From Escherichia phage CMS-2020a: 64,000 nucleotides of DNA. Below, in pieces: positions 8,298-63,034 of this stretch. The notes beneath the pieces were generated by a model. The model had not been told where the DNA came from and did not search any database. It saw nothing but the letters and a program-made list of their open reading frames with translations. The DNA lies in sequence record CP054387.1; one strand, written 5' to 3'. Position 1 is the first letter of the stretch, and every line of letters begins with the position of its first letter. A program made the position numbers and the translations under genes.

Positions 8298-8370
8298 TGA
8301 TGGAAACTCCTTTTTCCGTTAATTTCACGCATTCATTGCGCTATATTTAAGTATATACTTACCTATTTAT

Positions 8371-8754
8371 TTAATTCAATAAATAGCCAGCAAATTCAAC
8401 TGGAATACCGGCTTCTATTAACGATCCATCATTTTTCGGATAAACGACAGGCATAGCCATAGGCCGTACAAGTCGAAAATAGACCTCTCCAGATTCCGTT
8501 TCCTCTACGGGAAACATATCAATGATCTTACGCGCTTTCTCAATAGTCGTTGTAATTGACGAGCCACGCACAATGATTGTGAACGACTCATGATAAAAGC
8601 CCTGTAACTCATGATCGATACTGATACCGGTATTTGGGTTAATAAGCAGGACACCGGATTTGACATAGGCAGGTAAGTAATGACAGAAAATGTCTGTCCC
8701 TACCGTGCCAATCTTTGCCTTCTGCATCAAATTTGCAAATGCTTCAATAAACAC
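8371..8754 (-). CDS. tail terminator / tail completion protein (putative)
   Basis: Position between head-tail genes and major tail protein; start placed at GTG 8754 overlapping upstream stop (alternative ATG 8727). Confidence 0.4.
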   Translation of the reverse strand: MFIEAFANLMQKAKIGTVGTDIFCHYLPAYVKSGVLLINPNTGISIDHELQGFYHESFTIIVRGSSITTTIEKARKIIDMFPVEETESGEVYFRLVRPMAMPVVYPKNDGSLIEAGIPVEFAGYLLN

Positions 8755-8755
8755 A

Positions 8756-9229
8756 TTAACCTCTCGTAAACCCGGCTTTTTTGGCAGCCTCAAGAATCGC
8801 TTCGGAGAACTGCTTCTCGCTAATTTCCACCGCTCTTTCCAGAAAGTGTGGACCAACACGAGGTTTTACACCTTCAATTGGTGGGTTTGTCACGTTCTTC
8901 ATTCGAGAAAGATAACCGAGACGGTATTTGCCCAGCTCCATGTACTTAGCATAGTCACCTACTTCTACGCCAGGATGCCCCTGACGTGGCTTTGCCCCAG
9001 ACACAGAAAGCTCAATGCGCAGCCCTGAATAACCTTCTTTAATCACCCTAGCAAAGATGGCTGTCTCCAGAGATCCGGTTTCCAGCGGGGCCATTGCACG
9101 GCTGAGGCGCTCAACCAAACGCGCCAGCTTTTCCATGTCCCGAATAAGATATCGCTTAAATGCTTTCTGGCTGTTGTTGAGTCTATTCCCCGCACGTTTG
9201 AACTGATGCGCATCGTATTTCAGACCCAT
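8756..9229 (-). CDS. head-tail joining protein (HK97 gp10-like, putative)
   Basis: 157 aa, synteny in morphogenesis module. Confidence 0.4.
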   Translation of the reverse strand: MGLKYDAHQFKRAGNRLNNSQKAFKRYLIRDMEKLARLVERLSRAMAPLETGSLETAIFARVIKEGYSGLRIELSVSGAKPRQGHPGVEVGDYAKYMELGKYRLGYLSRMKNVTNPPIEGVKPRVGPHFLERAVEISEKQFSEAILEAAKKAGFTRG

Positions 9230-9564
9230 ATATTCGCCCCTACTTCAAGATGCCCAGGTCTTCCTCGTAGCCCCCAGCGGCGATGAACACTGGACACCTT
9301 TAATTTTTGACCTTCAAGGATCAGTACATCATCAAGTTCTACAGCCGATTCCAAAGGAACAACTAACACAGCATCAAACAGCTCCAGACTCGCCTTGCCA
9401 CGACTACCAGAGCTATCAGCACGAACTGACGATTTCTCATTACTCTGTTCGAATTTAACTACACCTACATTCGTCTTCCTGACGAACTGCAATTGCGCTT
9501 CACCGTAGACGTTCTTTGTGCCAAAGCGGTAGATCGCAATTTCTGTTTGCCATGAAATATTCAC
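9220..9564 (-). CDS. head-tail connector / head closure protein (putative)
   Basis: 114 aa, synteny. Confidence 0.35.
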   Translation of the reverse strand: MNISWQTEIAIYRFGTKNVYGEAQLQFVRKTNVGVVKFEQSNEKSSVRADSSGSRGKASLELFDAVLVVPLESAVELDDVLILEGQKLKVSSVHRRWGLRGRPGHLEVGANIWV

Positions 9565-9635
9565 GCTCTCTCCCTGTTGTCGATCTCATTGCCAGCCAAA
9601 ACTATTGCTTCCAAAACCAAATAATGAGAAAGACA

Positions 9636-10469
9636 TTACGAACGTCGGACAATCATACGATTGTCTATATAACGGATCAGTAAACGCCAGGTGCTGCGAG
9701 CAACATGCACGTTTGCTGATTTACCGGTACGATACATGTTGGTAGTTTCACCGATAGATTCTGACAAAATGCCATCCTCTCGTGCTGCGACGATATCATT
9801 GCCATTTGCTATCTCACACGCTTCATTAACAACGGCTAGCATTAACGCTTCTTTGAAGTAGTCAGGGAACTCTTCAAACTTCTCCTGAGTAATCTTTTCC
9901 CAATCGACTAAATCATGCCGGTACGCTCCATCTGCTCCCCACGGAATGTCATACACATTCAGCATATTTTGAGGGCGATCGTATCGGTCAAAGTCGATAC
10001 GTAGAATTTTGCGGATTGAGAACGGTAAAGTTTTAATACGTCTTGTAGCCTCAATGAGACGCTTGCGCATTAAGCCTTCACCATCCGACAGCAAAGTGTC
10101 CCCATTCAGCATATCGATCGCCTGCATTTGAGCATCAGCGACAGTTGCAAACGACTGTTCTGGTATCGACAGTTCAAAAGTATTCAGCAGAACATACATT
10201 TGACGCTCTTCATGCGTCAGGCCCGATGCAACAGCCTTCACAATGACGTACCGCAGATCTCGCTCTTTCTCAGAGAGCTGGTTATATTCAGCCGACACGA
10301 CAACCGGAATCGACATTTGACCGCTGGTAATTTCTAGCGGCTCGCCATCAACGAGAATAGCCCCGGTGCTGTCCTTTACTGTGTAGGTGGCAGATTCGAT
10401 ATCCAGCACGTTGAAGGCAAATGAAAGAGAAACAGCTTCACCGCTACGATACGAGTCGATCTGCGCCAT
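9636..10469 (-). CDS. hypothetical virion morphogenesis protein
   Basis: 277-aa ORF within the head module, no recognisable motif. Confidence 0.35.
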   Translation of the reverse strand: MAQIDSYRSGEAVSLSFAFNVLDIESATYTVKDSTGAILVDGEPLEITSGQMSIPVVVSAEYNQLSEKERDLRYVIVKAVASGLTHEERQMYVLLNTFELSIPEQSFATVADAQMQAIDMLNGDTLLSDGEGLMRKRLIEATRRIKTLPFSIRKILRIDFDRYDRPQNMLNVYDIPWGADGAYRHDLVDWEKITQEKFEEFPDYFKEALMLAVVNEACEIANGNDIVAAREDGILSESIGETTNMYRTGKSANVHVARSTWRLLIRYIDNRMIVRRS

Positions 10470-10903
10470 TACTCACCGCCTTGTGCTTTCAGGATGCCGT
10501 CAATCATTTCGACAATTCCTTTCGCCTTAACACCAATCTTATTCCCAATTGAACGTAAACCGGCAATACCCTCACTATCAGCAATTGACTCCAGTTCTTC
10601 CCGTGTGAAAGTTTGAATTGGTTTAGCTGGTTCATCTGCCGTTCCGCGCTTCATTGGAACAATGTCAGGTGCTGATGGCTCAACAATCTGATCTACGTTC
10701 AGATCATTACGTTCGCCATATGCAGCAGATGGAGAAACGTTTTTACCCTCAACAGTTGATGCGCGCATTGATGCACAAATCCTCTGCTGGTCGATAAAAG
10801 GTAACTCGGAAACGGATACCCCATTCTCAAACTTAACTCCACACAACATTCCCGAATAATCAGAAAATTGCGGTTCCAATAAACGAATTTTTGCTGGTTT
10901 CAT
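10469..10903 (-). CDS. hypothetical head protein (possible decoration/adaptor)
   Basis: 144-aa ORF immediately downstream of the putative capsid gene. Confidence 0.35.
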   Translation of the reverse strand: MKPAKIRLLEPQFSDYSGMLCGVKFENGVSVSELPFIDQQRICASMRASTVEGKNVSPSAAYGERNDLNVDQIVEPSAPDIVPMKRGTADEPAKPIQTFTREELESIADSEGIAGLRSIGNKIGVKAKGIVEMIDGILKAQGGE

Positions 10904-10931
10904 TACGCTTTCTCGCTATACAGGCATATTT

Positions 10932-10968
10932 AAAACCTACAAAAAGGGTGGGCGTATAGCCCACCCTT
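10932..10968 (-). terminator. rho-independent terminator after the putative capsid gene
   Basis: Hairpin AAGGGTGGGC-TATA-CGCCCACCCTT followed by a T-rich run on the minus strand. Confidence 0.55.
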
Positions 10969-11000
10969 AAGCATAGGTAATTACATACCTATTGTTTTAG

Positions 11001-11921
11001 TTAAATTTTTACATTGTTCAGTGCAGCGATAGCCTTATCGTGCTTATTCGCCAGAGAGCAGTACCATTTCACACGAGTACGTACTGCATCTTTATTCTGT
11101 ACCGTGCCAATGTTCTCCACAACGATACCAGCATTGTCACCGCCATACAGACCGGTAAGACCATTTTCTTCTGACAAATGCAGACAATAAATGTTAGCAG
11201 TACCTTCCTGGCCTTCCGTTTTCTGCTCTGAACCTTCAGTAACTTTAACCCCATTTTTAGGAATGAAGTCGTTAACAATAAATGGAATACCATTATGGCA
11301 CAGCATAGGACGACCGAAGTTCTCCATCATGATTTCAGACGGGCCTACGTTTACTGTACGCAGCAGCGCACGGTAAGCACGCAGGTGCTCTGAACGCATC
11401 ATGATGCAGTCAGCGCCCAAATCTTTCACCGCATCGACCAGCTCGTCGAACATAGAGAAAGTCATAGATGCACCAGCAATGTCGATCTTCTGATCTTTGT
11501 GCATCAGACGCGGAATACCATCAAACGCTTTGGTATTAGTTTCAGAATTACCCAAGATCAGATTTCGACGGAATGCACGAGCCAGACCTTTCACTTTCTG
11601 GCGAACCTGAACAGCCAACTGATTGTTAGTATCGGACATAGTTGTTGCCAAGAATTTATCAACGTCAACGTCACCAGCCAGAATACGCAGTTTTGCAACA
11701 TGTTCGCTGAATGTTGCTGCGCCTTCCGCAATAGTATCGTTTACATCAATAAAGGTCGCTTCACTAAGCGTTGCTTCGCGATTATAAAGATATGCCTTCG
11801 AGTTAATCTTCATAAAAGGCAGAATCGCAAACAGGTCATCGCGATCGATGATAGTTTCGATCACACCCTGTTCAAGTTCATTATTGGATAGCTTTTCAGC
11901 TTCTTCACGCAGTAATGGCAT
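11001..11921 (-). CDS. putative major capsid protein
   Basis: 306 aa, directly follows the scaffold-like gene; a terminator hairpin follows its stop. Confidence 0.45.
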   Translation of the reverse strand: MPLLREEAEKLSNNELEQGVIETIIDRDDLFAILPFMKINSKAYLYNREATLSEATFIDVNDTIAEGAATFSEHVAKLRILAGDVDVDKFLATTMSDTNNQLAVQVRQKVKGLARAFRRNLILGNSETNTKAFDGIPRLMHKDQKIDIAGASMTFSMFDELVDAVKDLGADCIMMRSEHLRAYRALLRTVNVGPSEIMMENFGRPMLCHNGIPFIVNDFIPKNGVKVTEGSEQKTEGQEGTANIYCLHLSEENGLTGLYGGDNAGIVVENIGTVQNKDAVRTRVKWYCSLANKHDKAIAALNNVKI

Positions 11922-11946
11922 CTATCAATTCCCTTTGATTTAGATG

Positions 11947-12834: not shown

Positions 12835-12855
12835 AAAAATTCCTTTTGTTACTTA

Positions 12856-14430
12856 TCACTCGTTCTCTTGAGTAGATGAGTCCCCATTCCCTCGGGGTTG
12901 ATCTTGCCCGCTTTCTTGGGCTGCACCACGATCATAAGTAAGTACTGACTTATTTTCAAGGGTATTTAGATCATTTTTTGGAGGAAAATTCAAGAGATCT
13001 TTATCAAATTCCTTTTTCATCGCCTCAGTAATGTTCGGGAAAATCTTCTCAATAAGCATTTCCATCTGGTGACGACGTACAGAGTCCGGTGCCTGAAGTA
13101 ATGACAGTTTCTCGGCAACAGAAAATTCATCAGTAAGGCCACGAATATCGAAACTTTCTGGATACGCAATTAAAGAGTGGTCTTCGTCCAGATCTACCCC
13201 CATCCATTTCGCAACCAGTAGCATGATTTGGCGTTCAGCCCTTTCCAGACGCTCTGCTTTTGTGACAAGCAAGCTATTTACACGCTGGAAGTCATACATT
13301 TTTGCGGCACCAGATGAATTATCGATTCCCTGTGCGTTGTCCTGCTTCGTTCGCTCACCAGCTACACCAACTGAATGGTAGATTTCGTTAATCACCGTCT
13401 TAATCGTAGTGATGATCATCTGAGCTTGTTTCGGGTCTGGTGACAGATAAAACGGCTGGTTTCCACCTTCAGAATCGTAGGTGAAGACTCGCTTTGTGCC
13501 CATTTCAAGCACTTTAGTGTGGTTTTCATCACCAGGTAAAAGCGACTGTACCGGTATAGCCAACTGGCTAAATGTCTGATCCTGAATAATGGCATCAAGG
13601 TTTGACAGATAGTTTGCAACCGCACGATCAAGATAAGCGATATCATCGATCAACGATGGGCTGAAATACGGTGATTCACTTTCTCCAATACAATCAACAG
13701 GAAACACAGGAACTACGCCGAGATTATGCTCACCGCTATCCTCTAAAATAACTTTTGCCTGACGGCGACCTGCTCCACCAGCGCCCTTCTTCACTTCCTC
13801 ACGGAACAGATACCACTCGTTTTGTGTCCACAGACGATAACGTTGGTATTCCTGACCTGTAGAAGTAAAAGGATCTGCGTCATCACGAGCGACTTCCACA
13901 ATTAACGCCCACAACATATTCCCGTCGTCGTCCCATGCCACATCCAGCATTTGCTGAGGTGAAATCCAGTAGGCGTAGGCGCGAGCATCTTTCTTTTTCT
14001 CGTCAGCTACTGACTCAACATCACCACTCATCGTGCTATCGACAACAACCCATATGCGACCGTAAATAGACGACTGCAAATCAATGGCGGCCATAAATGA
14101 GTCAATAGAGGCATTCTGGCGAGTCGCACGTTTCCAGAAATTGCGGATCTGCTCTGGTGCCTCTTCGATATTTCTATGAATGTCTTCTTTAAAGAGATAT
14201 TTGTTGATGAGGTTTACCACCTCACGAGTGTGGTTGAAGCGATAGGCACGCTCAACACGCTCCTTAAACTCCTGATCTCCCTCTTTAAAGTAACGAAAGA
14301 TATTGTCTGTAAACCAACCACGCCCGCCAGCGTAAGTGCTGGCGAGGAAGTCCCAATGTTCTTTTTTCTTTTCGTATTCCGGGTGGCGTCGCGCCACCAG
14401 ATCCTTAATTTGTTTGTCGTTCAAATCCAT
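12856..14430 (-). CDS. portal protein (putative)
   Basis: 524 aa, directly downstream of the large terminase gene. Confidence 0.55.
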   Translation of the reverse strand: MDLNDKQIKDLVARRHPEYEKKKEHWDFLASTYAGGRGWFTDNIFRYFKEGDQEFKERVERAYRFNHTREVVNLINKYLFKEDIHRNIEEAPEQIRNFWKRATRQNASIDSFMAAIDLQSSIYGRIWVVVDSTMSGDVESVADEKKKDARAYAYWISPQQMLDVAWDDDGNMLWALIVEVARDDADPFTSTGQEYQRYRLWTQNEWYLFREEVKKGAGGAGRRQAKVILEDSGEHNLGVVPVFPVDCIGESESPYFSPSLIDDIAYLDRAVANYLSNLDAIIQDQTFSQLAIPVQSLLPGDENHTKVLEMGTKRVFTYDSEGGNQPFYLSPDPKQAQMIITTIKTVINEIYHSVGVAGERTKQDNAQGIDNSSGAAKMYDFQRVNSLLVTKAERLERAERQIMLLVAKWMGVDLDEDHSLIAYPESFDIRGLTDEFSVAEKLSLLQAPDSVRRHQMEMLIEKIFPNITEAMKKEFDKDLLNFPPKNDLNTLENKSVLTYDRGAAQESGQDQPRGNGDSSTQENE

Positions 14431-14456
14431 TTGAATAACCTTAGATAATTACTTAC

Positions 14457-15713
14457 CTATCGAGAACCACCAAGAATAACACGGTTTTTGACTGGATACC
14501 TACGATGTACTGGATAGCCCAATGCGTCTGCACTATGCTCAATGCCACCTGTCTTATCCATATCTCGTGTTCCAGGCTTGTAGATGACTTTTTCCAGTGA
14601 ATCAATCAAATGCTTGCACTTCGGATCGATATACAGCCGGATATCTCCAGATGCGGACATCAGCATTCGGTTAACAGCATTAACACGATCCGCAATTGGC
14701 GGGTGCTTTTTCGAATAATCGACACGTAAGAATCCCTTCTCTTTGAATATGTCTACGTCAGACTCCCCACGAGCATGTTGGCGATAAGCACCTGCCGGAT
14801 CTGGAAATACCGTTACCTGTGATTTCCAGCGCCAGAAGCGTCTCTCAAGCTCATCACAAACTTCTGCCGTGTTAGAGGAAAAGAGCACCAATTCATCAAT
14901 TGCCCATAGCTCACCATTTGGCTGAGGTTGCAAAATTACTGAAGACATCGGGTCAATGTTGAAGTCCTGCCCTACCCATATAGGCAACCGAGGGTTGAAC
15001 TGAAGCGGTTTTACATGCACGTTACGATCGAACGGGTAGTAAACGCGCCCGGACATGTTCTCAAAGCTGGCCAGGTACTCCTGAGCGAACGATTTGGGGT
15101 CCATATCGTTCTTAGCAGCTTCAATTTCCGCCGTAGGTACAAACGGAGAATCGGCAGTTACAAACTGCCAGCTCTTCCACTGTCCCTTTCTTTGCAGCTC
15201 TACGTTCTGGCCTATAGTCCACAGTTTGTGAAATTCCGAGAAGCCTTTTGGCGTACCAATGATCAGTGCACCGCCGCGTGTCGATGAAAGAGTAGGTCGT
15301 AACACCTTGTACCAGGTGTCAGCCTTCATATCCTGAAATTCATCAAGCACTACAAAATGCAACGCTACGCCGCGCAGAGTGTCAGGCTTATCAGCACCTT
15401 TGAGGGCGATCTCCGAACCGTTCTTCAACACGATTGTCATCGTGGTGTCGTTCTTTTTCCTAACCCACTTACGAGGCAGAACTTCCTGTAGATCGTCCCA
15501 CAAAATCTGGCGAGCCATCTGGTAAGTAGGAGCGACATACCAGACCCTTTGCTTTTTTTCCTTTGCCGCCGCACGAATAATAGTGGAGATCGACAACCGG
15601 GATTTTCCCCAGCGTCGACCAGCACAAACAACTTTAAATCGATGCGGAGACTGGAAGACTTTCATCTGTCCAGAATGCAGTTGCACAAGACTGAGCGAGG
15701 ACGGGATTGCCAT
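14457..15713 (-). CDS. terminase large subunit
   Basis: Walker A VVCAGRRWGKS, Walker B HFVVLDEFQD, C-terminal nuclease-like acidic motifs. Confidence 0.75.
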   Translation of the reverse strand: MAIPSSLSLVQLHSGQMKVFQSPHRFKVVCAGRRWGKSRLSISTIIRAAAKEKKQRVWYVAPTYQMARQILWDDLQEVLPRKWVRKKNDTTMTIVLKNGSEIALKGADKPDTLRGVALHFVVLDEFQDMKADTWYKVLRPTLSSTRGGALIIGTPKGFSEFHKLWTIGQNVELQRKGQWKSWQFVTADSPFVPTAEIEAAKNDMDPKSFAQEYLASFENMSGRVYYPFDRNVHVKPLQFNPRLPIWVGQDFNIDPMSSVILQPQPNGELWAIDELVLFSSNTAEVCDELERRFWRWKSQVTVFPDPAGAYRQHARGESDVDIFKEKGFLRVDYSKKHPPIADRVNAVNRMLMSASGDIRLYIDPKCKHLIDSLEKVIYKPGTRDMDKTGGIEHSADALGYPVHRRYPVKNRVILGGSR

Positions 15714-16345: not shown

Positions 16346-16440
16346 AGATCCCTCTAAAACACACAGAGCGCGTCCATGCGCTCTAAAACAACTTGTTTAC
16401 TGCATCTGCTAACCAACTTGTTTTCTGGGGTGTTTAATTA

Positions 16441-16532: not shown

Positions 16533-16540
16533 CAGACCGA

Positions 16541-16807: not shown

Positions 16808-16816
16808 GGCAAATCC

Positions 16817-19034: not shown

Positions 19035-19732
19035 TACATACGCTCCTTGTAGTAGTCGACCAGCCACACTAGAGCCTCACCAGCGTTTTCCATTTCATTG
19101 CCAGTATTAATTGCCTGGTCTTTGATGATGTTTTTTATGGTTTCTGCAACGCGATCTGACGCATCGAAGGTTACTTTGAAGCGCATGGTCTGATGTTCCG
19201 CACCGACACGTTCGGTTTTCTCTCGTTTGTCGGTATCGACAGGCTCATCACTACCACGAGACAACGCCTCCAGTGCTTCAAGGTCGATTGCCGCCTCTTT
19301 TGCTAAAACCATCGAGATTTCGTCGTCATACGGGGCGATTTCAGACAGTTGATAGTCAAGTTCTGACTGAATTTCTTCAATGAAGCGTTGCAATGCGATT
19401 TGGTCGTCTTCACCGTATCGCTCGTTGTCCACCAGTGACATCTGTTTTGCCACGACATCGCTAATTTTGCCCACAGAAAGCACAGGAACCGTTGAAATTC
19501 CTTGCTCAATAGCAGCACGCCAGCGATGTTCGCCGCCGAGGATTTCAAAAAATCCATCTTCAAGCTCACGAGCCAAAATTGGCTTAAAAAAGCCCAATTT
19601 TTCGATAGAACCTTTCAGTTTTTCGAAATTCTGCGCACCAACCGAATTGGTGTTCCAGGTATTCGGGCGAAGGTTGGCAACATCAACCTGCAAAATCGTG
19701 ATTTTTACGTCCATTTTATTGCTACAATCCAC
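19034..19732 (-). CDS. ParB-like nuclease domain protein
   Basis: ParB motif GGEHRWRAA; first gene of the four-gene operon; start uncertain (19732 or 19714). Confidence 0.6.
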   Translation of the reverse strand: MDCSNKMDVKITILQVDVANLRPNTWNTNSVGAQNFEKLKGSIEKLGFFKPILARELEDGFFEILGGEHRWRAAIEQGISTVPVLSVGKISDVVAKQMSLVDNERYGEDDQIALQRFIEEIQSELDYQLSEIAPYDDEISMVLAKEAAIDLEALEALSRGSDEPVDTDKREKTERVGAEHQTMRFKVTFDASDRVAETIKNIIKDQAINTGNEMENAGEALVWLVDYYKERM

Positions 19733-19796
19733 TAAGTAATCACTTACTTATTATAATAGCCAAATAACATACAAAAGGCACTAAGGAAAGAGGTTT

Positions 19797-27819: not shown

Positions 27820-27944
27820 ATCACTCTCCATAGTGTCTTGGTTATTTTTCTATTTTATAGACATAGGTATGTACTTACAATACAAAAAACCCCGTAAGGA
27901 TGGCGGGGCTGTCGTACTGTCGACTAATTACCACTTGCACATTA

Positions 27945-41431: not shown

Positions 41432-41492
41432 ATGTTTTTCTCTTATCGTTTAGTTATTACATTCTTACACAAATTAAGTAAGTATTTACCTA

Positions 41493-43178
41493 TCATTTAA
41501 CGCGTTTGAAAACGTATACGCTGACTGTGATCCCTGTGTCTTCAAACTCGTTGGTAAACGACTTCCCTCTGGCATAAACGTAATTATCCATCGTCATCCA
41601 GTCCAGTATTGGCGCAGTGCCCGGCAATACTGCTACAAGACGCCCGCCGACTTTCAGATGCCCCAGCGCAGCCAGCGTGTGCTCTCTATGACGACCAAGC
41701 GAGTACGGCGGGTTCATAACGATTTTGTCGAACTGATAACCTGCGTTGTCCTCAGACCACTTTATGAAGTCGCAGCAAATCGTGTTCGTATACCCTTTTC
41801 CACGCAGGATATCAGCGAAGAGAGGTGCGATTTCTATGCAGGTAACATCTTCCAGATCGGCGTTAATATAGGCCAGAAGATCCCCACGTCCGGCTTGAGG
41901 CTCCAACAGCTTCTCACCAGGCTTCAATTCAGTGGCTCTGGCAACGTACTCAGCAATCAAGCGTGGGGTAGGGTAGAACTGGTGTGATTTTGTATCCGGT
42001 ATTAAACCGGTAGCCACAATCGTATTTAGCGTATGGCCGATCTCATACGGGAACTGCCAGTGCTTTTTCTCCTGCACGCCGCCAATGAAGCTCAGTGTGC
42101 GCTCAAGCTCTTCCACCTGCGACTTCTGGAGAGCTGAATCAGAGAAGTACCATACGCCTTTGTCTTTGCTCAATCGCCCGTCACGAAGCGCAGTGCGAAC
42201 CGGCACGGAGATCGTCTTCTGGATTAACCCGAACTGCTTTGGTGCCCGTGTTTTTGGCGCAGTTCGGCATGGCGCGGGGATTGCAGCAGGCATACTGTAA
42301 GCCAGCACCTCATTCAACTTCCAGGCCACGTCAGGATGTATTTCAAAGTGAACGTTGCCGTTCTTGAACATCTTCACGCGCATCAGATTTCCATCGACGT
42401 TCATCCAGTCACCGGTCTGGCAGTCGTTTGCCCGATACGCAGCTGATAGCACCTCAGCAGTGCGGTTGATGGTAATAAATTCTTTGTGCGCGAAGAAATG
42501 AAGCAAGACACGCAGATCGTCGATGTAGTCCTCTTTGCGATAGTTCACGCTAACGCTGTCACGCCAGAAATCAGAAATGCAGTCAGCGATTATCAGACGC
42601 TCGCTGAAACCGTTTGTCTTATTTGTCTTGTGCGCAGGACTCAGCGCCTTAAACAAGCCATACACGCGCTCAGAGAGATATTTGTGCCTGTCATTCAGCA
42701 AATTAAGCATCGTTGGTATGACCGTTTCTGCTTTGAACTCCGGTACACCAACGAACTCTTTAACCTTCATCTGATAGCCGGTTCTGTCAGTTTTGATGAC
42801 TTCCTGCTTGCCCTCGATAAATAGCTCACGCCACTCGTCGCGACGGGAAGCTGGCATGATCAGCAGAACGTTAGTCATATCCGTAACCTTCCTCCAGTAC
42901 TCGGCCCAAATATTCTGTTTCACCCATTCCAGATCGACGTTATCCAGCCAGACTCGATTCAAACGTGAGCGATCTTCATCTGGTCGGTGGTTTAGTCGAA
43001 GCAGGCGATTAATCATGTTGTGGCGTTCATCGCCATAAACGAAGTCGTGTACCTGATACATGAAGGAGATCTCTTTCTCGCACTCGGCCACAATTTCGTG
43101 GATGACGTTCATTTCCTGTCGATAGTCGATAGCAGTGTTTGAGCTGGCATCGCCCATGATGGAAAGGGCTGTATTCAT
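41493..43178 (-). CDS. DNA N6-adenine methyltransferase with a large N-terminal domain of unknown function
   Basis: C-terminal half has SAM motif LLEPQAGRGD followed by catalytic VMNPPYS; about 400 N-terminal residues unassigned. Confidence 0.55.
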   Translation of the reverse strand: MNTALSIMGDASSNTAIDYRQEMNVIHEIVAECEKEISFMYQVHDFVYGDERHNMINRLLRLNHRPDEDRSRLNRVWLDNVDLEWVKQNIWAEYWRKVTDMTNVLLIMPASRRDEWRELFIEGKQEVIKTDRTGYQMKVKEFVGVPEFKAETVIPTMLNLLNDRHKYLSERVYGLFKALSPAHKTNKTNGFSERLIIADCISDFWRDSVSVNYRKEDYIDDLRVLLHFFAHKEFITINRTAEVLSAAYRANDCQTGDWMNVDGNLMRVKMFKNGNVHFEIHPDVAWKLNEVLAYSMPAAIPAPCRTAPKTRAPKQFGLIQKTISVPVRTALRDGRLSKDKGVWYFSDSALQKSQVEELERTLSFIGGVQEKKHWQFPYEIGHTLNTIVATGLIPDTKSHQFYPTPRLIAEYVARATELKPGEKLLEPQAGRGDLLAYINADLEDVTCIEIAPLFADILRGKGYTNTICCDFIKWSEDNAGYQFDKIVMNPPYSLGRHREHTLAALGHLKVGGRLVAVLPGTAPILDWMTMDNYVYARGKSFTNEFEDTGITVSVYVFKRVK

Positions 43179-46337: not shown

Positions 46338-46461
46338 AAAGAGTTGCGGCTGGCAATCGCCAGCCGCCTTTCTCGTTCCATCCTGGAACTGTGTCTTACC
46401 GACACATTGTCATCCTGACGCCGATAAGATACATGATTTATAATGATAGGTAAACACTTAC

Positions 46462-47055
46462 TTACTGTTTGTTATAAACAAAACCAATATCTTTCTTGTG
46501 AGGCATATCTGCTGCTGAAAAAGCTGCGATCTTCGCGAGTCGATCACATATTTCATTTTCACGATGCCCGGCGTGACCTTTAACCCACTTCCAGCGAACA
46601 TTATGTCGACTTGCGGCCTCATCCAGACGCTTCCACAGATCAACATTCTTTACCGGTTTTTTGTCAGAAGTCATCCATCCATTGCGTTTCCACCATTTCA
46701 TCCACTGTGTCATGCCGTTTTTCAGATACTGGCTATCAGAGTGCAAAATAACGTTGCATGGATATTTCAAACGCTCCAGCCCGATAAGTGCCCCCATCAT
46801 CTCCATGCGGTTATTGGTGGTGCTATGAAAACCATCTGAGAACTCGCGTTCCTCGCCACGATACTGGAGAACGATACCGTAACCGCCCGGGCCACCCGGA
46901 TTTTTAAGGCAAGAGCCATCACTAAAGATTTTCACGGTTTTAAGCTGGGGATTGAACTCTACGACAGGCGTTGTGGGATTGGTGCGGGGAGAATTTTTGT
47001 TTTTGTCTTTTTTGCGAGTTTTTGCTTGCGGTCGGGCTGGTGTCTTCGTTGTCAT
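46462..47055 (-). CDS. ribonuclease HI
   Basis: [18 protein letters not shown] and FSDGSC...GYG motifs typical of RNase HI; start at ATG 47055 (RBS AGGAG). Confidence 0.8.
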
Positions 47056-47636
47056 ATAAACTCCTGAATCAAGCGCCGCGCCGATTTTTCCTCGCGCGTG
47101 CGCACACGCGTGCGTGTTAATAATTATTAAAATAAACAAATTACTTCCCAGAACAGGTTTTTATAAACCTGAACTGAACGAACGAAGTGAGTGAAGTTCA
47201 CCTCGAACGAAGTGAGAGGTTGTCTTTTCAGGTAATACTCTCCCAGGGAGGTGAGTATAAAATTCCTCACCAACCTGGTCGTTTCATAACCTGAAAAGCT
47301 ATGGTCTAAGTCTACTGCCAGCTTAGACTTGGGAAGTTATGGATGACAGCACCCCAGAACCGAGATCTTCCCACACTTTATGAAGGGGAGTACTGGATTC
47401 AACCTCTCGAAACACCCCAGACTCGACAATCATAAAGTGACCCTTGTCTCCGCTCACTTTGGTTCCCCCTTCCCCGACACCTAAACGGCACCGGTTCTAC
47501 GCTGGTAGTGAGCTTTTTTAAACCTGACGCCAGTGACGCTTACCCCCACCCATCAGGTCGAGTCTCCAGTCTACGACTGGAAACTATCAGATCTTAGCAC
47601 TTACAATTCATCTTATGAATAGTTTGTACTTATCTA

Positions 47637-47891
47637 TCATTTCGATTGATTATTTTCTCGACCATGTAGTTGAACATTCAAGGCAAACACCTCGTTGATC
47701 AACTCACCTAAAAGCTGTTCAACAAGTTCGCGATGCTCCCCAAGATGCAAGCACTTAATTGCCCACTCGTACAAGTTGAAAGCCTGCTCACGATCTTTCA
47801 TCATTTCACGAGCCTGGGCCAGAAAATCGCTGTCTACGAGCGCAACGACATTAGTCGGGTATGACATGTTGGTTTCCTTAAAGTGGTTCAT
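47637..47891 (-). CDS. hypothetical small protein
   Basis: 84-aa ORF. Confidence 0.35.
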   Translation of the reverse strand: MNHFKETNMSYPTNVVALVDSDFLAQAREMMKDREQAFNLYEWAIKCLHLGEHRELVEQLLGELINEVFALNVQLHGRENNQSK

Positions 47892-48660: not shown

Positions 48661-48680
48661 ATAGGTAAGTAAATACCTAT
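48661..48680. promoter_or_regulatory. palindromic motif family 2 (ATAGGTAAGTA...TACCTAT), representative copy
   Basis: ATAGGTAAGTAAATACCTAT; related copies at 8348, 10973, 14442, 19733, 27863, 41473, 46441, 58211, 62893, mostly just upstream of minus-strand gene starts. Confidence 0.5.
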
Positions 48681-48715
48681 TTTTGCATTTGATTTTATGT
48701 ATGGCAATCAAATAA

Positions 48716-52380: not shown

Positions 52381-52381
52381 A

Positions 52382-53485: not shown

Positions 53486-53652
53486 AAAACCTCACGAAGA
53501 TAAGTAATCAATTATTTATCACGTGAGTTTACATTCATTGATAAAACAAGACCAGATAGATAAAAAATGGTGGCCATAGGCCACCAAAAAGAATAGTCGT
53601 TCCAGAGTTTTATACGCAAATCAAATATACATTAGTAGATAATCACCTACAA

Positions 53653-58163: not shown

Positions 58164-58236
58164 GTATCACCAAATAAAGAGGGCCACTAAATATAGTGGC
58201 CCATGTTAATAGATAAGCACTTACCTATCAATGAAA

Positions 58237-59559: not shown

Positions 59560-61465
59560 AGCTGCGCCCCTCTTTAACTTCCAGCGTAATAGTTTCCCGG
59601 AACCATGACTTCATCTCTTTATGGGAGATAATCAGCACAGTACCTCGCTCGCGAGCTTTGGACTCCAGAATACCCATGAGGCGTTCAAGACCGGCTGTAT
59701 CGAGTGCATCGTCAATTTCGTCGCCGATAAACAAATCGATGTTTTTACTCGCCCGGTTACTAACCAGATCCTGCAATGCCAAAGAACACGCAATGCGAAC
59801 CTTCCGCTTCTCACCACCAGAGAGGGTCTGGAACGACTTACTTGAACCTTTCTTCTGCACACTAATGTTGAATTTGTCGCGATACTCACCTTTTTTGGTG
59901 ACATCCATCGTCGACCACTCAGCAGTAATATTCCCGTCAGACAACGTATTGAGATACTCGGCAGTGCGTGTATTCAGGAAAGGCGTAACAGACGTCAAAA
60001 TATGAGAACGCACCCCGGCAGGAGAGTAGACCTGACGAGCTTTTTCCAATAGCAACGTTTGTTCCTGAATAGCCTTCAACTCATCTTTTAAGGACTTGAA
60101 GGTAGACTTACTGGATACCAGGTTATCTTCGTGTCTGGCGATAAGAGCAATAAACGGATTAATCTCTTTTGATATACGATCGACCTCAGTACGAGCACGA
60201 GTCACAAGAGACTCAATAGCAACAATCTCCTTCTCACGATGACGCAAAGATGAGAGTTGTTTCGTAAGCTCTTCAATCCGGGCAATGATAGCCGTTACAT
60301 CAGGTGTCGTTTTAACAAGGGCAGACTCAATGCTTAACGCTTTCTCAAGATTCGTTTTGTGTTTAGCCATTGCCTCTGCAAGTGTCTTCGCCTGACCAAT
60401 TTCCTGACGTGCTTGTTCAATGAAATTCTCCTTCACCGTTGATAGATCTTCTTCGCAGTAGGCTTTGCCACAAGTAGGGCATGGTGATCCCACTTTAGTA
60501 CCAACCTCTTCTGCTTTGGTCTTAAAATTACGCGCGCGGTTCATTGCATCAGCCTGACTATTTTCTGTAGCTTTGATGCTTGCCCGAATATCAGTTATCG
60601 CACCACGAACTTTGAGCAACTTGGCGTCATGTTCTTCTTTTGAGGCTAACTTTTTGCGCTCACTTTCGATTGCCTTCTCGGTATCACGGATCTGTTCGGG
60701 AAGAGTGCGGATCTCAAGTTCAACTTCCGTTAACTCAACTTCGGCACTTGCCAGCCCAGCCAGGGCATCGTCATAACGTTTAGAACGCTCTTGTTCCCAT
60801 GATTCAGAGGAGGCTTTCGCGGACTCAATTTCTGACTGTGTTGCCTCAATGGTCGAGATTGTCGACTCCAATTTGGTTTTAACCACATCCATACGTGCGG
60901 CAGCTGCATTAGCTCGCTCACGAGCAATAGCGTAGGCGCGTGTCAGTCTGTCAACGCCAGCGGCTTCTTCTACGATGGTTTTGAGGTTTTTGTCGGACAT
61001 TCCAGGTAAATCTGGCATAGCTTCTTGGCTCGCATAGATGGAAGCCATGAAAACCTCTTTAGATGCACCGATCAGACGCTCGACGAACTCTTGCGTCAGC
61101 GCATCTTTGCCTTTCGTCATATCGCCGTCTTCACCACGAACGATAAGCCGATTTTTGAACTCTTTGTGTTTACGGTGACGAATGATCGCATATCTCTTGC
61201 CTTCATCCTCGATGGTTACTGCAACACGACAGTTCTTTTCATGGTCGGTAGACAACACATCGTCACCCTTCACACCATGAGCTGTTTCGCCATAAAGACA
61301 CCACATCAGGCTATTCATTAGCGTTGACTTTCCAGAGCCATTACTTGATGCGGAACTATCATCACTATTAACACCCTGAATGAGCACTAAACCACGCTGA
61401 TCTAACTCGACCTCCGCGCTAGCGATAGCCATAAAATTCTCAACCTGGAGCTTTAAAAACTTCAT
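59549..61465 (-). CDS. SbcC/Rad50-like recombination ATPase
   Basis: Walker A NGSGKSTLMNSL, central coiled coil, signature LSGGEKRKVRIACSLAL, Walker B LFIGDEIDDALD. Confidence 0.8.
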   Translation of the reverse strand: MKFLKLQVENFMAIASAEVELDQRGLVLIQGVNSDDSSASSNGSGKSTLMNSLMWCLYGETAHGVKGDDVLSTDHEKNCRVAVTIEDEGKRYAIIRHRKHKEFKNRLIVRGEDGDMTKGKDALTQEFVERLIGASKEVFMASIYASQEAMPDLPGMSDKNLKTIVEEAAGVDRLTRAYAIARERANAAAARMDVVKTKLESTISTIEATQSEIESAKASSESWEQERSKRYDDALAGLASAEVELTEVELEIRTLPEQIRDTEKAIESERKKLASKEEHDAKLLKVRGAITDIRASIKATENSQADAMNRARNFKTKAEEVGTKVGSPCPTCGKAYCEEDLSTVKENFIEQARQEIGQAKTLAEAMAKHKTNLEKALSIESALVKTTPDVTAIIARIEELTKQLSSLRHREKEIVAIESLVTRARTEVDRISKEINPFIALIARHEDNLVSSKSTFKSLKDELKAIQEQTLLLEKARQVYSPAGVRSHILTSVTPFLNTRTAEYLNTLSDGNITAEWSTMDVTKKGEYRDKFNISVQKKGSSKSFQTLSGGEKRKVRIACSLALQDLVSNRASKNIDLFIGDEIDDALDTAGLERLMGILESKARERGTVLIISHKEMKSWFRETITLEVKEGRSYVV

Positions 61466-61694
61466 ATAACACCTTTGATACCGTGTGTTAGCTTTTGACC
61501 TTCTTTCAATCTGAACTCCGTATGCGCCGGGAAGGATCTGCGCCTCAATACGCCTTTTCTGGTTAACCTTCCAAGATAAAACGCTACGGGATTTCCTTGT
61601 GGCGGGTAGGGCTTGTGAAACATCACCGTCTGGCCTCGTTCAAGTCTTTTCATCGTGATGGCAAAGTCTCGAAAGCTCCCATAACGACTTTGTC

Positions 61695-62780
61695 TCACAC
61701 AGCCTCCGAACTCTCCGCTTCGGTGAGGATTTCCTGACACAAAATATCCAACTTGCTCAGATCAAATCCGCCGTCAGTATCGTGGACAATCTTGCAATAA
61801 GCAGATACCGACTCTCCCAGGCTATCGATTTTGCTGGTTTCAGTTGTGCTGGCTGTCCCTTCCATCATTGATGACTTACGGATGAAGTTGCACACGACAC
61901 CTTTTGCGCCCATTGTTTTGAGGATGTTCTGGTACTTAATGCCTTCTTCATCGTTCTCAATTACGGCGCGGAAACGCACGTAGTTGCCGCGAATTTGGTC
62001 ATCAGCAACATCATCTTCCAGGTTAATGAATTTAGGCGCACTGGTTTCGTAGTGACTGAAACTGCCGTCCGGGTTTACGATCATGTAACCAGCCAGAGAT
62101 CCAACATCTCCCCAATTTTGATGGGTCAGTGCACCGACACTGATAACTCCAGGAATGACCTCTTTGTGGTTGTGGTAATGCCCACTAAGCACGAGACGAA
62201 AGCCGATATCCTTTAACTCCTGCGCATCGATACCGACGTCAGGCATTGTTGGAATGGCTTTGTTAATGGATGTATGGATAACAACGTCATGATTATCACC
62301 TTCTACGCTCTTACGTAATGCTTTCAGATCGCTGATAAGCTCCGCATGATTGTTACGCCAGCTAATCAGGTGGACAGTCACATCACCAATTTTTATTGAG
62401 TGTGGGCGTTTGCCACATACGATTACCACGCCGATAGAACTCAGCGATGCTGCTGCGTTGGCGCTATATACTGAATCGTTGGTTTCAAGATCGTGATTAC
62501 CGGCCAGCATTACTACTGTCAGATCAAGCTCGTTGATAATCCACTTGTACGTTTCAGTTACGTAATGCAAAACAGAAGGGGACACAGTTCCTCGGACGTG
62601 AAATGTATCACCGGCAACCAACATGTACTTACAACCGGCCTTCTTCATGGCGATGGCTGCTTCTTTCGTTGCTTCCAACTGTATTTCAAGTCTGGAGTTA
62701 AGCCCCTCTGCGTTCGTCGTGGAGAACGCATCCCATTTGTGGTAGTGGCAGTCAGAAATGACGCCGTATGGCAAAGTCAT
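61695..62780 (-). CDS. SbcD/Mre11-like nuclease
   Basis: Calcineurin-like phosphoesterase motifs ISDCHYH, VAGDTFH, LAGNHD, GHYHNH. Confidence 0.8.
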   Translation of the reverse strand: MTLPYGVISDCHYHKWDAFSTTNAEGLNSRLEIQLEATKEAAIAMKKAGCKYMLVAGDTFHVRGTVSPSVLHYVTETYKWIINELDLTVVMLAGNHDLETNDSVYSANAAASLSSIGVVIVCGKRPHSIKIGDVTVHLISWRNNHAELISDLKALRKSVEGDNHDVVIHTSINKAIPTMPDVGIDAQELKDIGFRLVLSGHYHNHKEVIPGVISVGALTHQNWGDVGSLAGYMIVNPDGSFSHYETSAPKFINLEDDVADDQIRGNYVRFRAVIENDEEGIKYQNILKTMGAKGVVCNFIRKSSMMEGTASTTETSKIDSLGESVSAYCKIVHDTDGGFDLSKLDILCQEILTEAESSEAV

Positions 62781-63034
62781 GTGTTTTTCCTTTGTGGTTA
62801 TTTTGATACAAATTTTAAGAGCAATGAGAAGGTAAACAACTATGCATAACGGTATGTTAGGAATGAAACGAGCGTCTTAATATACAAAATTTATAAGTAA
62901 GTATATACCTATTTATTGTGGCGCAACTTTGCTTGTCTGTATGACTAAAAATAAGACAGGATCACTGTAGAACGCTATGAGAGCTATTTTGAGGAGGCGT
63001 AGATTCTATCTACGCCAATATACGATCTGGAGGG

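Follow-up and report, generated by a model that had tools for sequence, protein, structure and literature searches.

A recurrent 20-bp palindrome at gene boundaries of an SSU5-like phage-plasmid, probably a dispersed repressor operator

The 64,000-nucleotide stretch of DNA analysed here (the window) represents an SSU5-like phage-plasmid of E. coli with 98% identity to phage PhiR41_1. It carries 14 copies of a 20-bp palindrome, ATAGGTAAGT|ACTTACCTAT in the family consensus with A-rich and T-rich flanks, against approximately 0.2 expected by chance. Scans of the window recovered 5 matches to the core TAAGTATATACTTA with at most two mismatches (0.11 expected) and 12 matches to the half-site ATAGGTAAGTA with at most one mismatch (0.59 expected), and no shuffled sequence reached either count. 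A symmetrised 20-bp weight matrix gave 15 positions above 14 bits, versus 0.16 in shuffles; because this matrix was derived from the motif sites themselves, the core and half-site scans constitute the independent test of enrichment.

All 11 positions listed in the first-pass annotation proved to be genuine or half-degenerate copies (20-mers beginning at 8347, 10973, 14441, 19732, 27863, 41474, 46446, 48661, 53500, 58209 and 62893), and its assignments of the downstream genes held up (Ig-domain tail protein, portal, thymidylate synthase, NrdA, SbcD-like phosphoesterase and Dam). Copies at 1849-1868 and 12934-12953 and a weak one at 47618-47637 were missing from that list. The proposed location just upstream of gene starts is only partly descriptive: in eight cases the motif touches or overlaps the preceding gene's stop codon, at offsets of -4 to +8 nt, and across the copies the distance to the next start codon runs from 10 to 112 nt. 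No copies were found at 20-27.8 kb or 28-41.4 kb of the window, which are regulatory and accessory regions.

The promoter-like and hairpin features described for the individual copies below all lie on the minus strand. Within the structural genes, the copy at 1849..1868 (15.5 bits; minus-strand reading ATAAGTAAGTGCTAATTTAC) separates the stop of a tail M-like gene from the tail L gene and has orthologues in SSU5, pJN2-26 and PhiR41_1. A promoter-like TGGATA-17-TATTAT at 1843..1871 shares the motif's first 3 nt with its -35 and places its -10 directly after the motif, in a register identical in three genomes; a terminator-like GC-rich hairpin with a T-run (1817..1839) begins 4 nt past the -10, so positioned that the predicted start at about 1836 would fall within its 5′ arm. 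The 8347..8366 copy (25.5 bits) precedes the Ig-domain major tail gene, 4 nt past the upstream stop, and the -10 of a promoter-like TTGAAT-18-TATACT (8350..8379), conserved in SSU5 and pJN2-26, sits at its centre. The perfect palindrome TAAGTATATACTTA with TATACT, previously offered as the general core, is peculiar to this copy. At 10973..10992 (28.5 bits) the motif lies 8 nt past the stop of a structural gene that is of Ig-domain/decoration type in the window and encodes the major capsid protein in SSU5 and pJN2-26; no convincing promoter was found at this copy (promoter score only 3.8), and a conserved terminator-like hairpin (10950..10966) follows directly downstream. The 12934..12953 copy (24.0 bits), which falls in the portal gene's 3′ end with the next gene 99 nt on, is invariant at 20 of 20 columns in three genomes. 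Here the motif's nt 1-17 form the spacer of a promoter-like TTGAAA-17-TATGAT (12931..12959) and its last 3 nt open the -10; this is the top promoter match within window positions 1-20000, scoring 13.1 in three genomes. The copy at 14441..14460 overlaps the stop of the terminase large subunit gene, with the portal ATG 10 nt on; promoter scoring detected no promoter there, and the copy has decayed in PhiR41_1.

Farther along, the 19732..19751 copy (22.3 bits) occupies the divergent region between a ParB-like gene (minus strand) and a helicase operon (plus strand), adjoins the palindromic ATTATAAT and has syntenic counterparts in Acinetobacter and Aeromonas elements. At 27863..27882 (17.7 bits; 18 of 20 columns invariant) the left half has changed into the -35 box of a promoter-like TTGTAA-17-TAAAAT (27852..27880), whose spacer holds the right half; a terminator hairpin read from the sequence, CCCCGCCATCCTTACGGGG plus a T-run (27890..27908), lies directly upstream. 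The 41474..41493 copy (27.0 bits) overlaps the stop codon of a DUF4942 methylase-like gene, and 7 nt past it the alignment indicates a putative extended -10, TGtAAGAAT (41461..41469), which reads TGTAAGAAT in the window and SSU5 and, with one substitution, TGTAGGAAT in pJN2-26. Two further copies also overlap stop codons: 46446..46465 (23.5 bits) that of the RNase H gene, and the weak 47618..47637 (13.0 bits), with one good half-site only and an SSU5 orthologue of 19.2 bits. The Dam methylase ATG lies 11 nt beyond the 48661..48680 copy (28.5 bits), which covers the predicted start (about 48672) of a promoter-like TTGCCA-17-(TGc)AAAAAT (48679..48707) that is conserved in SSU5 and pJN2-26 and whose -10 ends in the motif's first 2 nt. 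The half-degenerate copy at 53500..53519 (20.5 bits; orthologues 25.5 and 27.2 bits) precedes the thymidylate synthase ATG by 14 nt. Ahead of nrdA, the 58209..58228 copy (26.5 bits) shares its first 3 nt with the -35 of a promoter-like TTGATA-17-TAACAT (58203..58231), the -10 follows the motif directly, and the register is identical in three genomes; a terminator-like hairpin (58181..58202) begins directly past this -10, and the predicted start at about 58196 would lie in its 5′ arm. Finally, the 62893..62912 copy (27.2 bits; 18 of 20 columns invariant within divergent flanks) stands 112 nt before the SbcD-like gene, with a -10-like TATATT (62879..62884; TGyCATAAT in relatives) 8 nt past it.

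Comparison of the copies revealed strong dyad symmetry, with G5 T6 and A15 C16, 10 bp apart, as the best conserved bases. Where one half deviates, the other tends to remain consensus; joint deviation of the two sides of pair 9/12 was seen in 6 copies versus 11.7 expected, with a single compensatory change. Such independent or anti-correlated half-sites are expected of a protein dimer, and the symmetry suits a dimeric DNA-binding protein dedicated to the motif. An RNA-level hairpin, serving as a processing site, terminator or translational operator, possibly for the FljA-like protein encoded at 23515-24039 (PF03614), appears very improbable. It gains something from start codons 1-17 nt beyond some copies, from an idealised 32-nt version of the motif that folds at -14.9 kcal/mol, and from the action of Salmonella FljA on fliC mRNA (PMC2652032). 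Real copies, however, fold weakly (-0.5 to -6.6 kcal/mol), and the copies compared exhibit no RNA-type compensation or covariation between half-sites: of 120 distinct copies, no more than 65-76 could pair at 4/17, 8/13 and 9/12. A further point against a role in RNA is that several registers put the motif ahead of the predicted start, where it would not be part of that transcript. Nor does the Acinetobacter element, which carries the motif family, encode an FljA-like protein, and the Aeromonas element's FljA-like match is only marginal, to an Hfq-like gene.

SSU5, pJN2-26 and PhiR41_1 each carry 24-26 copies genome-wide. Exact 18-mer matches, scanned in the viral collection and one genome per species, fell in SSU5-like DNA only, apart from two low-complexity fragments, in agreement with the element-family specificity claimed earlier. 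The conservation check on related genomes that had been called for showed that motif positions are kept: across three genomes 80% of motif columns are invariant versus 56-61% in the 30-nt flanks, suggestive of purifying selection. Copies remain syntenic and stable between genomes of 79% identity and even across genera. This stability counts against a recombination or mobility signal (a module boundary, a site-specific nuclease target or a miniature mobile element), as do the lack of visible target-site duplications or longer repeat bodies around the copies and an orientation-specific promoter association that it would leave unexplained; although copies lie at gene boundaries, often on stop codons, we give this explanation scarcely any credence.

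The suggested association with promoters oriented as the genes was borne out by both overlap and sense-direction scoring. Minus-strand promoter-like matches (calls being consensus matches) number 31 in 60 kb, and 6 of them fall on the 14 copies versus about 0.35 expected; the mean promoter score in the sense direction is 7.85 versus 5.81 for the antisense direction of the same palindrome (p=1.5e-5, the sense score being the greater in 50 of 66 copies). Hexamers overlapping the motif are presumed to be active promoters. Motif registers relative to the hexamers vary by site (-4, 6, 11, 17, 20 and 25) while orthologues agree, such that the motif covers the -35 and spacer, the -10, or the transcription start. 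Approximately five site groups have no recognisable promoter, and a simple promoter-occlusion model fails to explain these.

This variety bears on the earlier proposal of a special promoter class or dedicated activator site. An activator of this kind would be a phage-encoded dimer that brings host RNA polymerase to middle or late promoters from its site on the palindrome. Copies do stand ahead of many lytic genes, and those at 41474 and 62893, with their orthologues, have an extended -10 alone without a -35. However, the distance from motif to -10 spans -4 to +25 nt, TATACT occurs in one copy only, and four site groups have the motif over the -10 or transcription start, from where an activator could not work. 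Several promoters also possess near-consensus boxes at the optimal 17-nt spacing (TTGAAA-17-TATGAT, TTGATA-17-TAACAT, TTGCCA-17-TGcAAAAAT) and so would not need one. A non-exhaustive search brought up no protein homologous to known phage activators. Together with the repressor-gene copy and the lysogen expression described below, these features make an activator unlikely.

A conserved promoter core with no dedicated binder, in which duplicated promoter cassettes are alike by descent or recombination, could account for the many sites where the -35, spacer or -10 is partly made up of motif sequence, and for the Acinetobacter -10 TATAAT that overlaps the motif's 3′ end at many sites. We consider it unlikely: six registers for one 20-bp sequence do not describe a single promoter cassette, spacer function requires neither dyad symmetry nor the G5 T6/A15 C16 spacing, promoterless copies exist, and deviation in one half-site tends to leave the opposite half consensus.

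Relatives encode, outside the window and adjoining the integrase, a 128-aa XRE-type helix-turn-helix putative repressor. In every lineage sampled, its promoter TTTACA-16/17-TAATAT is followed directly by ATC(G/A)GTAAGCACTTACC, so that a motif copy with the core GGTAAGyACTTACC covers the promoter's start. The protein family is confined to enterobacterial contigs of about 100-116 kb; its predicted fold is of XRE/Cro-CI type, with weak fold-search E-values (0.004 or worse), and wherever the motif does not vary, the protein's recognition-helix region hardly varies either. SSU5 was isolated as a phage that forms plaques, and its genome is without the orf70-repressor-integrase block present in relatives 93-94% identical to it.

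In distantly related phage-plasmids, motif and repressor co-diverge. An Acinetobacter element whose large terminase is 59% identical carries, in the corresponding spacers, about 30 sites of the form TTAGTAAGCGCTTACTAA, and a repressor homologue of 38% identity in the syntenic place. An Aeromonas element carries CAGTAA-N4-TTACTG at 21 sites versus 0.4 expected, one of them about 60 nt before a repressor homologue of 33% identity. The XRE protein is thereby suggested as the binder of the motif, by one autoregulatory-looking copy and co-divergence in three lineages.

Other conserved proteins co-occur with the motif equally well, among them two ParB-like proteins (19034-19732 and 18366-19067), both with a ParB N-terminal domain. 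These could load or bind at the motif, either to regulate globally in the manner of KorB or to organise DNA in lytic growth or packaging; enterobacterial, Acinetobacter and Aeromonas elements all conserve them, with a motif copy directly before the operon in all three. Such a role is favoured by the binding of ParB and KorB proteins to 13-16 bp palindromes that recur on a plasmid. Nevertheless, outside the N-terminal domain neither a helix-turn-helix nor a KorB-type DNA-binding domain was detected, the copy at the XRE repressor promoter would be left unexplained, and in the lysogen both proteins are at background although their targets are silent, so they are not the lysogenic silencer. We regard ParB binding as distinctly unlikely.

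Published RNA-seq of the Cyrano lysogen shows the repressor expressed and lytic genes at background (PMC9928086, supplementary file 2). In these data (PMC9928086) expression steps up after promoters that are strong but carry weak copies (CYRAN_4/5, 12, 34, 56, 60 and 107), the step at CYRAN_12, the entry for the 8350..8379 promoter, being +2.5 log2; none was seen behind the best copies (nrdA, dam, sbcD). The corresponding correlation, which is resolved only to whole genes, is weak (Spearman rho -0.45 to -0.51, p about 0.05), and promoter strength confounds it. Silence of every target gene in the lysogen would also suit an activator; leakage behind weak rather than strong copies, like the copy over the start of the repressor promoter, would not. 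Expression of the helicase operon beside the 19732 copy in the lysogen counts against repression.

Varied registers, near-consensus promoters, the repressor-gene copy and leakage behind weak copies all point to a repressor operator, which the differing promoter registers favour over an activator site or special promoter. We therefore judge it reasonably likely that the palindrome is a dispersed operator of the prophage's master repressor, set within host sigma-70 promoters and analogous to that of P1 C1. While the element persists as a plasmid prophage, roughly 25 sites would most likely be occupied by the small XRE-type repressor as a dimer, in short spacers ahead of most lytic units (structural, lysis, and DNA replication and metabolism genes). 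Binding is expected to repress: bound repressor would block RNA polymerase and, at the copy just past its own promoter, limit its own synthesis, whereas its loss or inactivation would free all operator-bearing promoters together. The promoterless copies, at the terminase/portal junction and before the 10950-10966 terminator, may act as roadblocks or auxiliary sites.

The system would then be a further case of a recognised kind. In P1, one prophage repressor, C1, acts on more than 12 promoter-overlapping operators dispersed through a plasmid prophage some 100 kb long. Both systems would place many operons, DNA-metabolism genes included, under one repressor, but P1 operators are asymmetric 17-mers rather than a 20-bp palindrome, and C1 is large and unrelated to the 128-aa XRE-type candidate. 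Mycobacteriophage L5 and other Cluster A phages carry 20 to 30-odd gp71 repressor sites (stoperators) in short intergenic spacers genome-wide, often on stop or start codons and some without promoters. The terminase/portal copy resembles this arrangement; stoperators, however, are 13-bp, asymmetric, orientation-dependent and elongation-blocking, whereas the present motif is symmetric and mostly over promoter hexamers.

RK2/IncP KorA/KorB similarly use palindromic operators at many promoters of one plasmid for coordinated repression, and ParB-family proteins like KorB are encoded beside one copy here; yet the sequences are unrelated, and KorB is ParB-type and can act at a distance, while the favoured binder is XRE-type and lies in the integrase module. 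CI/Cro of lambdoid phages, 434 and P22, and Rep of Salmonella phage SPC32H (PDB 5d4z), a small XRE repressor inactivated by antirepressors, share a dimeric helix-turn-helix and palindromic operator. As in CI/Cro systems, key bases lie one helical turn apart, the repressor's own promoter would be negatively controlled, and the fold match is XRE/Cro-CI; operators in all of these systems, however, occupy one or two control regions only, not about 25 promoters. P1 Lpa late promoters and T4 MotA-box middle promoters also have a phage-specific element replacing or overlapping the -35 at many genes, but at a fixed distance from the -10 and with an activator needed, whereas here the distance varies and includes positions over the -10 and start.

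P1 late genes use the activator Lpa, whereas here structural genes also carry the motif. With late structural genes on plain sigma-70 promoters, temporal control is not obvious and another layer must exist, for which a second palindrome family, AAACAAnTTGTTT, is a candidate.

Searches of the window with a 14-mer core of the palindrome (up to two mismatches) returned 5 matches against 0.11 expected, and those with an 11-mer half-site (up to one mismatch) returned 12 against 0.59 expected. Alignment of the copies yielded a 20-bp palindromic consensus, ATAGGTAAGT/ACTTACCTAT, and a symmetrised weight matrix recovered 14 clear copies together with weak ones, 15 positions in the window exceeding 14 bits versus 0.16 in shuffled sequence. 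All 11 positions listed in the first-pass annotation proved genuine; three were missing from its list, namely 1849, 12934 (in the 3′ end of the portal gene) and the weak copy 47618 (copies are named by start coordinate). The palindromic core with an internal TATACT that it described is the centre of the 8347 copy alone. The downstream genes that the first-pass annotation named, by Pfam match or synteny with the SSU5 annotation, are indeed those for an Ig-domain tail protein, portal, thymidylate synthase, NrdA, an SbcD-like phosphoesterase and Dam. Nearly all window genes lie on the minus strand; eight copies in the window touch or overlap the upstream gene's stop codon, and the next start codon follows at 10 to 112 nt.

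The window matches PhiR41_1 at 98% identity, and Salmonella phage SSU5 and several Klebsiella phage-plasmids at about 79-81%; it therefore belongs to an SSU5-like phage-plasmid, about 108 kb in length. Matrix scans of whole genomes located orthologously placed copies in SSU5 (26), pJN2-26 (24) and PhiR41_1 (26), the retention of positions among relatives that the first-pass annotation had anticipated. These 24-26 copies per ~105-kb genome are scattered before structural, lysis and DNA-metabolism genes, including those for portal, decoration, tail, fibre, holin, the helicase region, SSB, sbcD, nrdA, thyA and dam. In three-way alignments, 80% of motif columns were invariant versus 56-61% in the flanking 30 nt. 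An exact 18-mer matched SSU5-like DNA alone in a viral contig collection, and in a scan of one genome per species it matched two SSU5-like contigs and two low-complexity fragments. The motif is thus specific to the SSU5-like element family, which argues for an element-encoded rather than a host-encoded factor. A host transcription-factor site is unlikely, since the scan of one genome per species found the 18-mer in no host chromosome. The palindrome is not known to match host boxes such as those of LexA, TrpR, TyrR and similar regulators.

The information profile of the motif is symmetric, and its peak bases, G5 T6 and A15 C16, are separated by 10 bp, or one helical turn. Among 120 distinct copies, half-site deviations were non-compensatory: pair 9/12 carried 37 and 38 deviations, which coincided in 6 copies versus 11.7 expected and included a single Watson-Crick compensation. 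Such dyad symmetry with independent half-sites is that of sites for dimeric helix-turn-helix proteins, and the pattern reads as a dimeric protein site on DNA rather than a hairpin. An RNA hairpin or intrinsic terminator was rejected, given weak predicted folding of real copies (-0.5 to -6.6 kcal/mol), the lack of covariation and an Rfam search of the window that returned no family at the gathering threshold. Among the five alternatives that we ranked roughly by plausibility, a palindrome acting as an RNA-level operator stands fourth, and one acting as a recombination signal fifth.

The relation of the motif to promoters was assessed through consensus matches, and all promoter calls are to be read as such. 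A sigma-70-like scan of the minus strand found 31 matches in positions 1-60000, of which 6 fell on motif copies versus about 0.35 expected; promoter-like matches of the scan thus coincide with 6 of the 14 copies in the window. These comprise TTGAAA-17-TATGAT (12959-12931, the best match of the first 20 kb), TTGAAT-18-TATACT (8379-8350), TGGATA-17-TATTAT (1871-1843), TTGATA-17-TAACAT (58231-58203), TTGCCA-17-AAAAAT with an upstream TG (48707-48679) and TTGTAA-17-TAAAAT (27880-27852), all on the minus strand. A conserved promoter scoring at least 9 was present in about 15 of 25 site groups. Because the motif is palindromic, its antisense direction provided an internal control: across 66 copies from three genomes, the mean best promoter score was 7.85 in sense versus 5.81 in antisense, with sense exceeding antisense in 50 of 66 (p=1.5e-5), a significance somewhat overstated since orthologues are non-independent and orthologous copies inflate sample sizes.

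The register of motif to hexamers varied between sites and was constant among orthologues. The motif forms the spacer at the portal-internal, RecA/membrane and SSB sites; overlaps the -35, with the -10 directly after it, at nrdA and tail L; contains the -10 at the major tail gene and the small gene SSU5_066; covers the predicted start at dam; and precedes a -10 or extended -10 by 5-9 nt at 27863, 41474 and 62893. At SSU5_066 only 1 nt separates the motif from the start codon, so that the transcript would be leaderless. The -10 of nrdA and tail L is followed after 1-4 nt by a terminator-like hairpin whose 5′ arm contains the predicted start; we infer that transcripts arriving from upstream may terminate there while the promoter's own transcripts would miss the full stem.

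Judged on consensus matches, the motif therefore overlaps elements of the controlled gene's core promoter (-35, spacer, -10 or start). The first-pass annotation had proposed special promoters or sites for a dedicated activator, and an activator site remains the first of the five alternatives in plausibility. Activator-dependent promoters of the P1 Lpa or T4 MotA type would be expected to show a fixed distance to the -10 and a poor -35, whereas the registers here ranged from -4 to +25 and several promoters combine a 17-nt spacer with a -35 box that matches at 4 or 5 of its 6 positions. The last of the register groups above accounts for an apparent puzzle: some copies stand too near a start codon to serve as upstream promoter elements, the predicted promoter lying upstream of the motif or within it. 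The variable register, reaching the -10 and the start, and the several near-consensus promoters argue for repressor operators and against the activator or special-promoter proposal. Ranked second is a shared promoter core without a dedicated protein, on which the coincidence with promoter matches and the variable register both bear; a promoter element of fixed spacing was rejected, as the pooled alignment of 66 copies displayed no sharp downstream -10 and the different registers emerged from per-site analysis only.

About five site groups had no recognisable promoter: the terminase/portal junction, the copy before the terminator at 10950-10966, hyp038, the CobT-internal site and hyp089. The terminase/portal copy (14441-14460) scores 25 bits in the window and 12 bits (ATAGGTGTGTGGTTATTTAA) at its PhiR41_1 position, 47639, a decay that suggests weaker constraint on promoter-less copies.

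A candidate binder is encoded outside the window. Cyrano, a relative with published lysogen RNA-seq, PhiR41_1 and pJN2-26 all carry an integrase gene, an opposite-strand gene for a 126-128 aa "putative repressor", and a divergent 70-aa ORF (orf70). In every lineage sampled (repressors 66-100% identical), the sequence 5′ of the repressor gene reads CTTTACAA-N-TGTAATAT, followed at once by ATC(G/A)GTAAGCACTTACC, so that a motif copy, GGTAAGCACTTACC, stands at the repressor's own promoter. With a good predicted promoter and the motif core over the start, this appears to be the classical arrangement for negative autoregulation.

The candidate, named XRE at NCBI, belongs to a family confined to ~100-116 kb contigs from E. 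coli, Salmonella, Klebsiella, Enterobacter, Citrobacter, Cronobacter and Raoultella. The helix-turn-helix region of the protein, GYKNxNNLSLIKSGKIPLP, hardly varies, paralleling the invariance of the motif in the same hosts. An AlphaFold model (mean pLDDT 80.5) gave weak best fold matches in the PDB (E at least 0.004) to C-proteins, Stl, a Salmonella phage repressor, HigA and 434 repressor; Pfam helix-turn-helix matches were below family cut-offs. By its modelled fold the protein would belong to the general XRE/Cro-CI class.

The XRE repressor has no counterpart in SSU5. Contigs 93-94% identical to SSU5 (loci L091 and L095) carry the orf70-repressor-integrase block of 3-6 kb, and SSU5 itself (L002) has a clean junction at the same place (about 42,633-42,639). 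We therefore rejected the missing gene as counter-evidence, as it corresponds to a clean deletion. SSU5 appears to be a natural descendant of a pHCM2-like plasmid prophage that has lost the repressor and is lytic for that reason; this fits its isolation as a plaque-forming phage and would explain its retention of all copies.

A large-terminase search recovered about 1000 plasmids, among them elements from Acinetobacter (terminase identity 59%) and Aeromonas (53%). On the Acinetobacter baumannii plasmid NZ_CP107594.1, a palindrome, TTAGTAAGCGCTTACTAA, occurs at about 30 places (39 matches with up to 4 mismatches vs 9 in shuffles), and a TATAAT often overlaps its 3′ end. The spacers are the same: terminase/portal, post-capsid with terminator, helicase/ParB, CobT/MoxR, pre-sbcD and nrdA/nrdB. 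This element encodes a 38%-identical XRE repressor homologue in the syntenic place, and neither an FljA-like gene nor orf70. On the Aeromonas veronii plasmid NZ_AP027934.1, CAGTAA-N4-TTACTG is found at 21 places versus 0.4 expected, among them terminase/portal, DUF6651/capsid, ParB/helicase, CobT/MoxR, nrdA, thyA and the sbcD operon, with one site about 60 nt before a 33%-identical XRE homologue. The core GTAA-N4-TTAC is constant in the enterobacterial, Acinetobacter and Aeromonas lineages, and the outer half-site bases (AG/CT, TA/TA and CA/TG) shift alongside the start of the recognition helix (NANN, NQNM and NQTS). Such co-change has the direction expected if the XRE protein reads the site, three lineages being few.

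A second candidate binder, the FljA-like protein (PF03614), was judged unlikely: no homologue was found in the Acinetobacter element and only a marginal match (E=0.01, to an Hfq-like gene) in the Aeromonas element, yet both keep the motif family. This full-length FljA-type protein ("repressor of phase-1 flagellin", E=9e-80) is encoded at 23515-24039 on the plus strand, within the oppositely oriented helicase operon, and its C-terminal 50 residues have marginal Hfq-like matches (PDB E about 1; Aeromonas plasmid Hfq gene E=0.01). A PDB sequence search returned nothing for either the XRE repressor or the FljA-like protein, and the literature on the FljA target yielded no operator sequence.

Published lysogen RNA-seq bears on the proposed regulation. 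In the Cyrano lysogen, repressor gene CYRAN_45 is expressed at ~10 times background and genes behind motif copies are at background (PMC9928086, supplementary file 2); ciprofloxacin induces Cyrano (PMC9928086). In the 6-hour macrophage samples of that study, expression steps occurred exactly behind strong predicted promoters with weaker copies, at CYRAN_4/5 (+1.2, then higher), CYRAN_12 (+2.5), CYRAN_34 (+2.4), CYRAN_56 (+3.6), CYRAN_60 (+3.7) and CYRAN_107 (+1.3). No step appeared in these samples behind the best copies (nrdA, dam, sbcD), and the nrdA and dam promoters score as high as those with steps. At gene level, site score and expression step were negatively correlated (rho -0.45 to -0.51, p about 0.05), a sign that weakly favours repression.

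The motif-free segment 28000-41400 holds accessory genes (MetRS, a Mrp/MinD-like ATPase, a UmuD-like peptidase and Ea-type genes), several of which have Cyrano homologues that the lysogen expresses. An intergenic, conserved non-coding stretch of about 360 nt (47273-47637) lies downstream of the weak 47618 copy. CYRAN_81, a small ORF annotated in its Cyrano counterpart, is at about 12 times background in the lysogen, a level suggestive of an abundant small transcript; the stretch matched no Rfam family, and a tRNA scan found none.

With moderate confidence, we regard the palindrome as a repressor operator. That its binder is the 128-aa XRE-type protein we hold with somewhat less confidence. Indirect evidence that a cognate repressor would bind the site and lower transcription comes from the motif copy at the XRE gene promoter, the three-lineage co-divergence and the lysogen RNA-seq. 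The operator would sit within host-type promoters of the lytic genes. Bound as a dimer at ~25 copies in the plasmid prophage, the XRE-type repressor would occlude RNA polymerase and restrict its own synthesis; upon its loss or inactivation, all units would fire. Promoter-less copies may act as roadblocks or helper sites. The SSU5-like family also encodes an Ant-like protein. Third in plausibility among the alternatives, and in our judgement improbable, is that the palindromes are loading sites, instead of or besides repressor operators, for the two ParB-family proteins encoded beside the 19732 copy. Loading at ~25 sites and spreading or sliding from them, as KorB does on RK2, would then serve genome-wide transcriptional regulation, or DNA organisation for partition and packaging at the lytic switch, with the XRE repressor sharing or competing for the sites.

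As a repressor operator, the motif resembles the P1 C1 system in its many operators dispersed over a phage-plasmid before separate operons. The P1 operator is an asymmetric 17-bp sequence, whereas the site here is a 20-bp palindrome and the XRE-type candidate has no named family match, so that homology was not found and the system is an analogue of P1 C1, not a member. Cluster A mycobacteriophage stoperators are asymmetric, single in orientation and mostly off promoters, whereas the copies here are palindromic and most lie on promoter-like hexamers; the minority without a promoter (e.g., 14441 and 10973) makes for a partial likeness. The RK2 KorA/KorB regulons are partly alike in logic. Site and protein here are unrelated to those of all three systems. 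The searchable literature contained no description of the motif sequence, of SSU5 or pHCM2 promoters or operators, or of SSU5-group regulation or lysis-lysogeny control.

SSU5-like phage-plasmids (pHCM2, pMT1-related, pECOH89-like, Cyrano) occur commonly in E. coli, Klebsiella, Salmonella, Enterobacter and Yersinia; ~1000 plasmid records carry this terminase, some with resistance genes. If correct, the repressor-operator assignment would supply a map of lytic promoters, an operator sequence and a candidate master repressor, and would explain the lytic behaviour of SSU5. Immunity groups would become definable, because the outer half-site bases differ among the enterobacterial, Acinetobacter and Aeromonas lineages. 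Such a system would be useful to phage-plasmid researchers and is unsurprising in principle.

The regulatory picture is incomplete, as a second, more numerous palindrome, (aaga)AAACAAnTTGTTT(aa), has a distribution complementary to that of the 20-bp motif. It occurs at 16385, 28268, 31173, 44826, 45554 and 55772, with variant copies at 26602, 27367, 31226 and 35164, and is probably the "first" palindrome of the first-pass annotation. SSU5, pJN2-26 and PhiR41_1 each have about 21-24 copies, usually 12-40 nt before a start codon and adjoining the ribosome-binding site, often paired around TGnGATAAT; the genes concerned include those for small terminase, ParA, DnaB, CobT, NrdB and many accessory functions. 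An inverted repeat of about 53 nt, long and AT-rich (CCTGCTTCCGTATAT...ATATACAGAAGCAGG), is present in two copies (16463-16515 and 47977-48031), one of them just upstream of the small-terminase region, near the start of the linear SSU5 and Cyrano records; it might be linked to packaging or replication. Abutting the 46446 copy of the 20-bp motif is an antisense promoter-like sequence, CTGACG-18-TATAAT (46415-46444, plus strand), kept in SSU5 and pJN2-26. This copy is separated from the next gene by some 80 nt of structured sequence together with a bidirectional terminator (46346-46367), and the interval 46346-46465 could give rise to a small RNA or to a transcript antisense to the RNase H gene.
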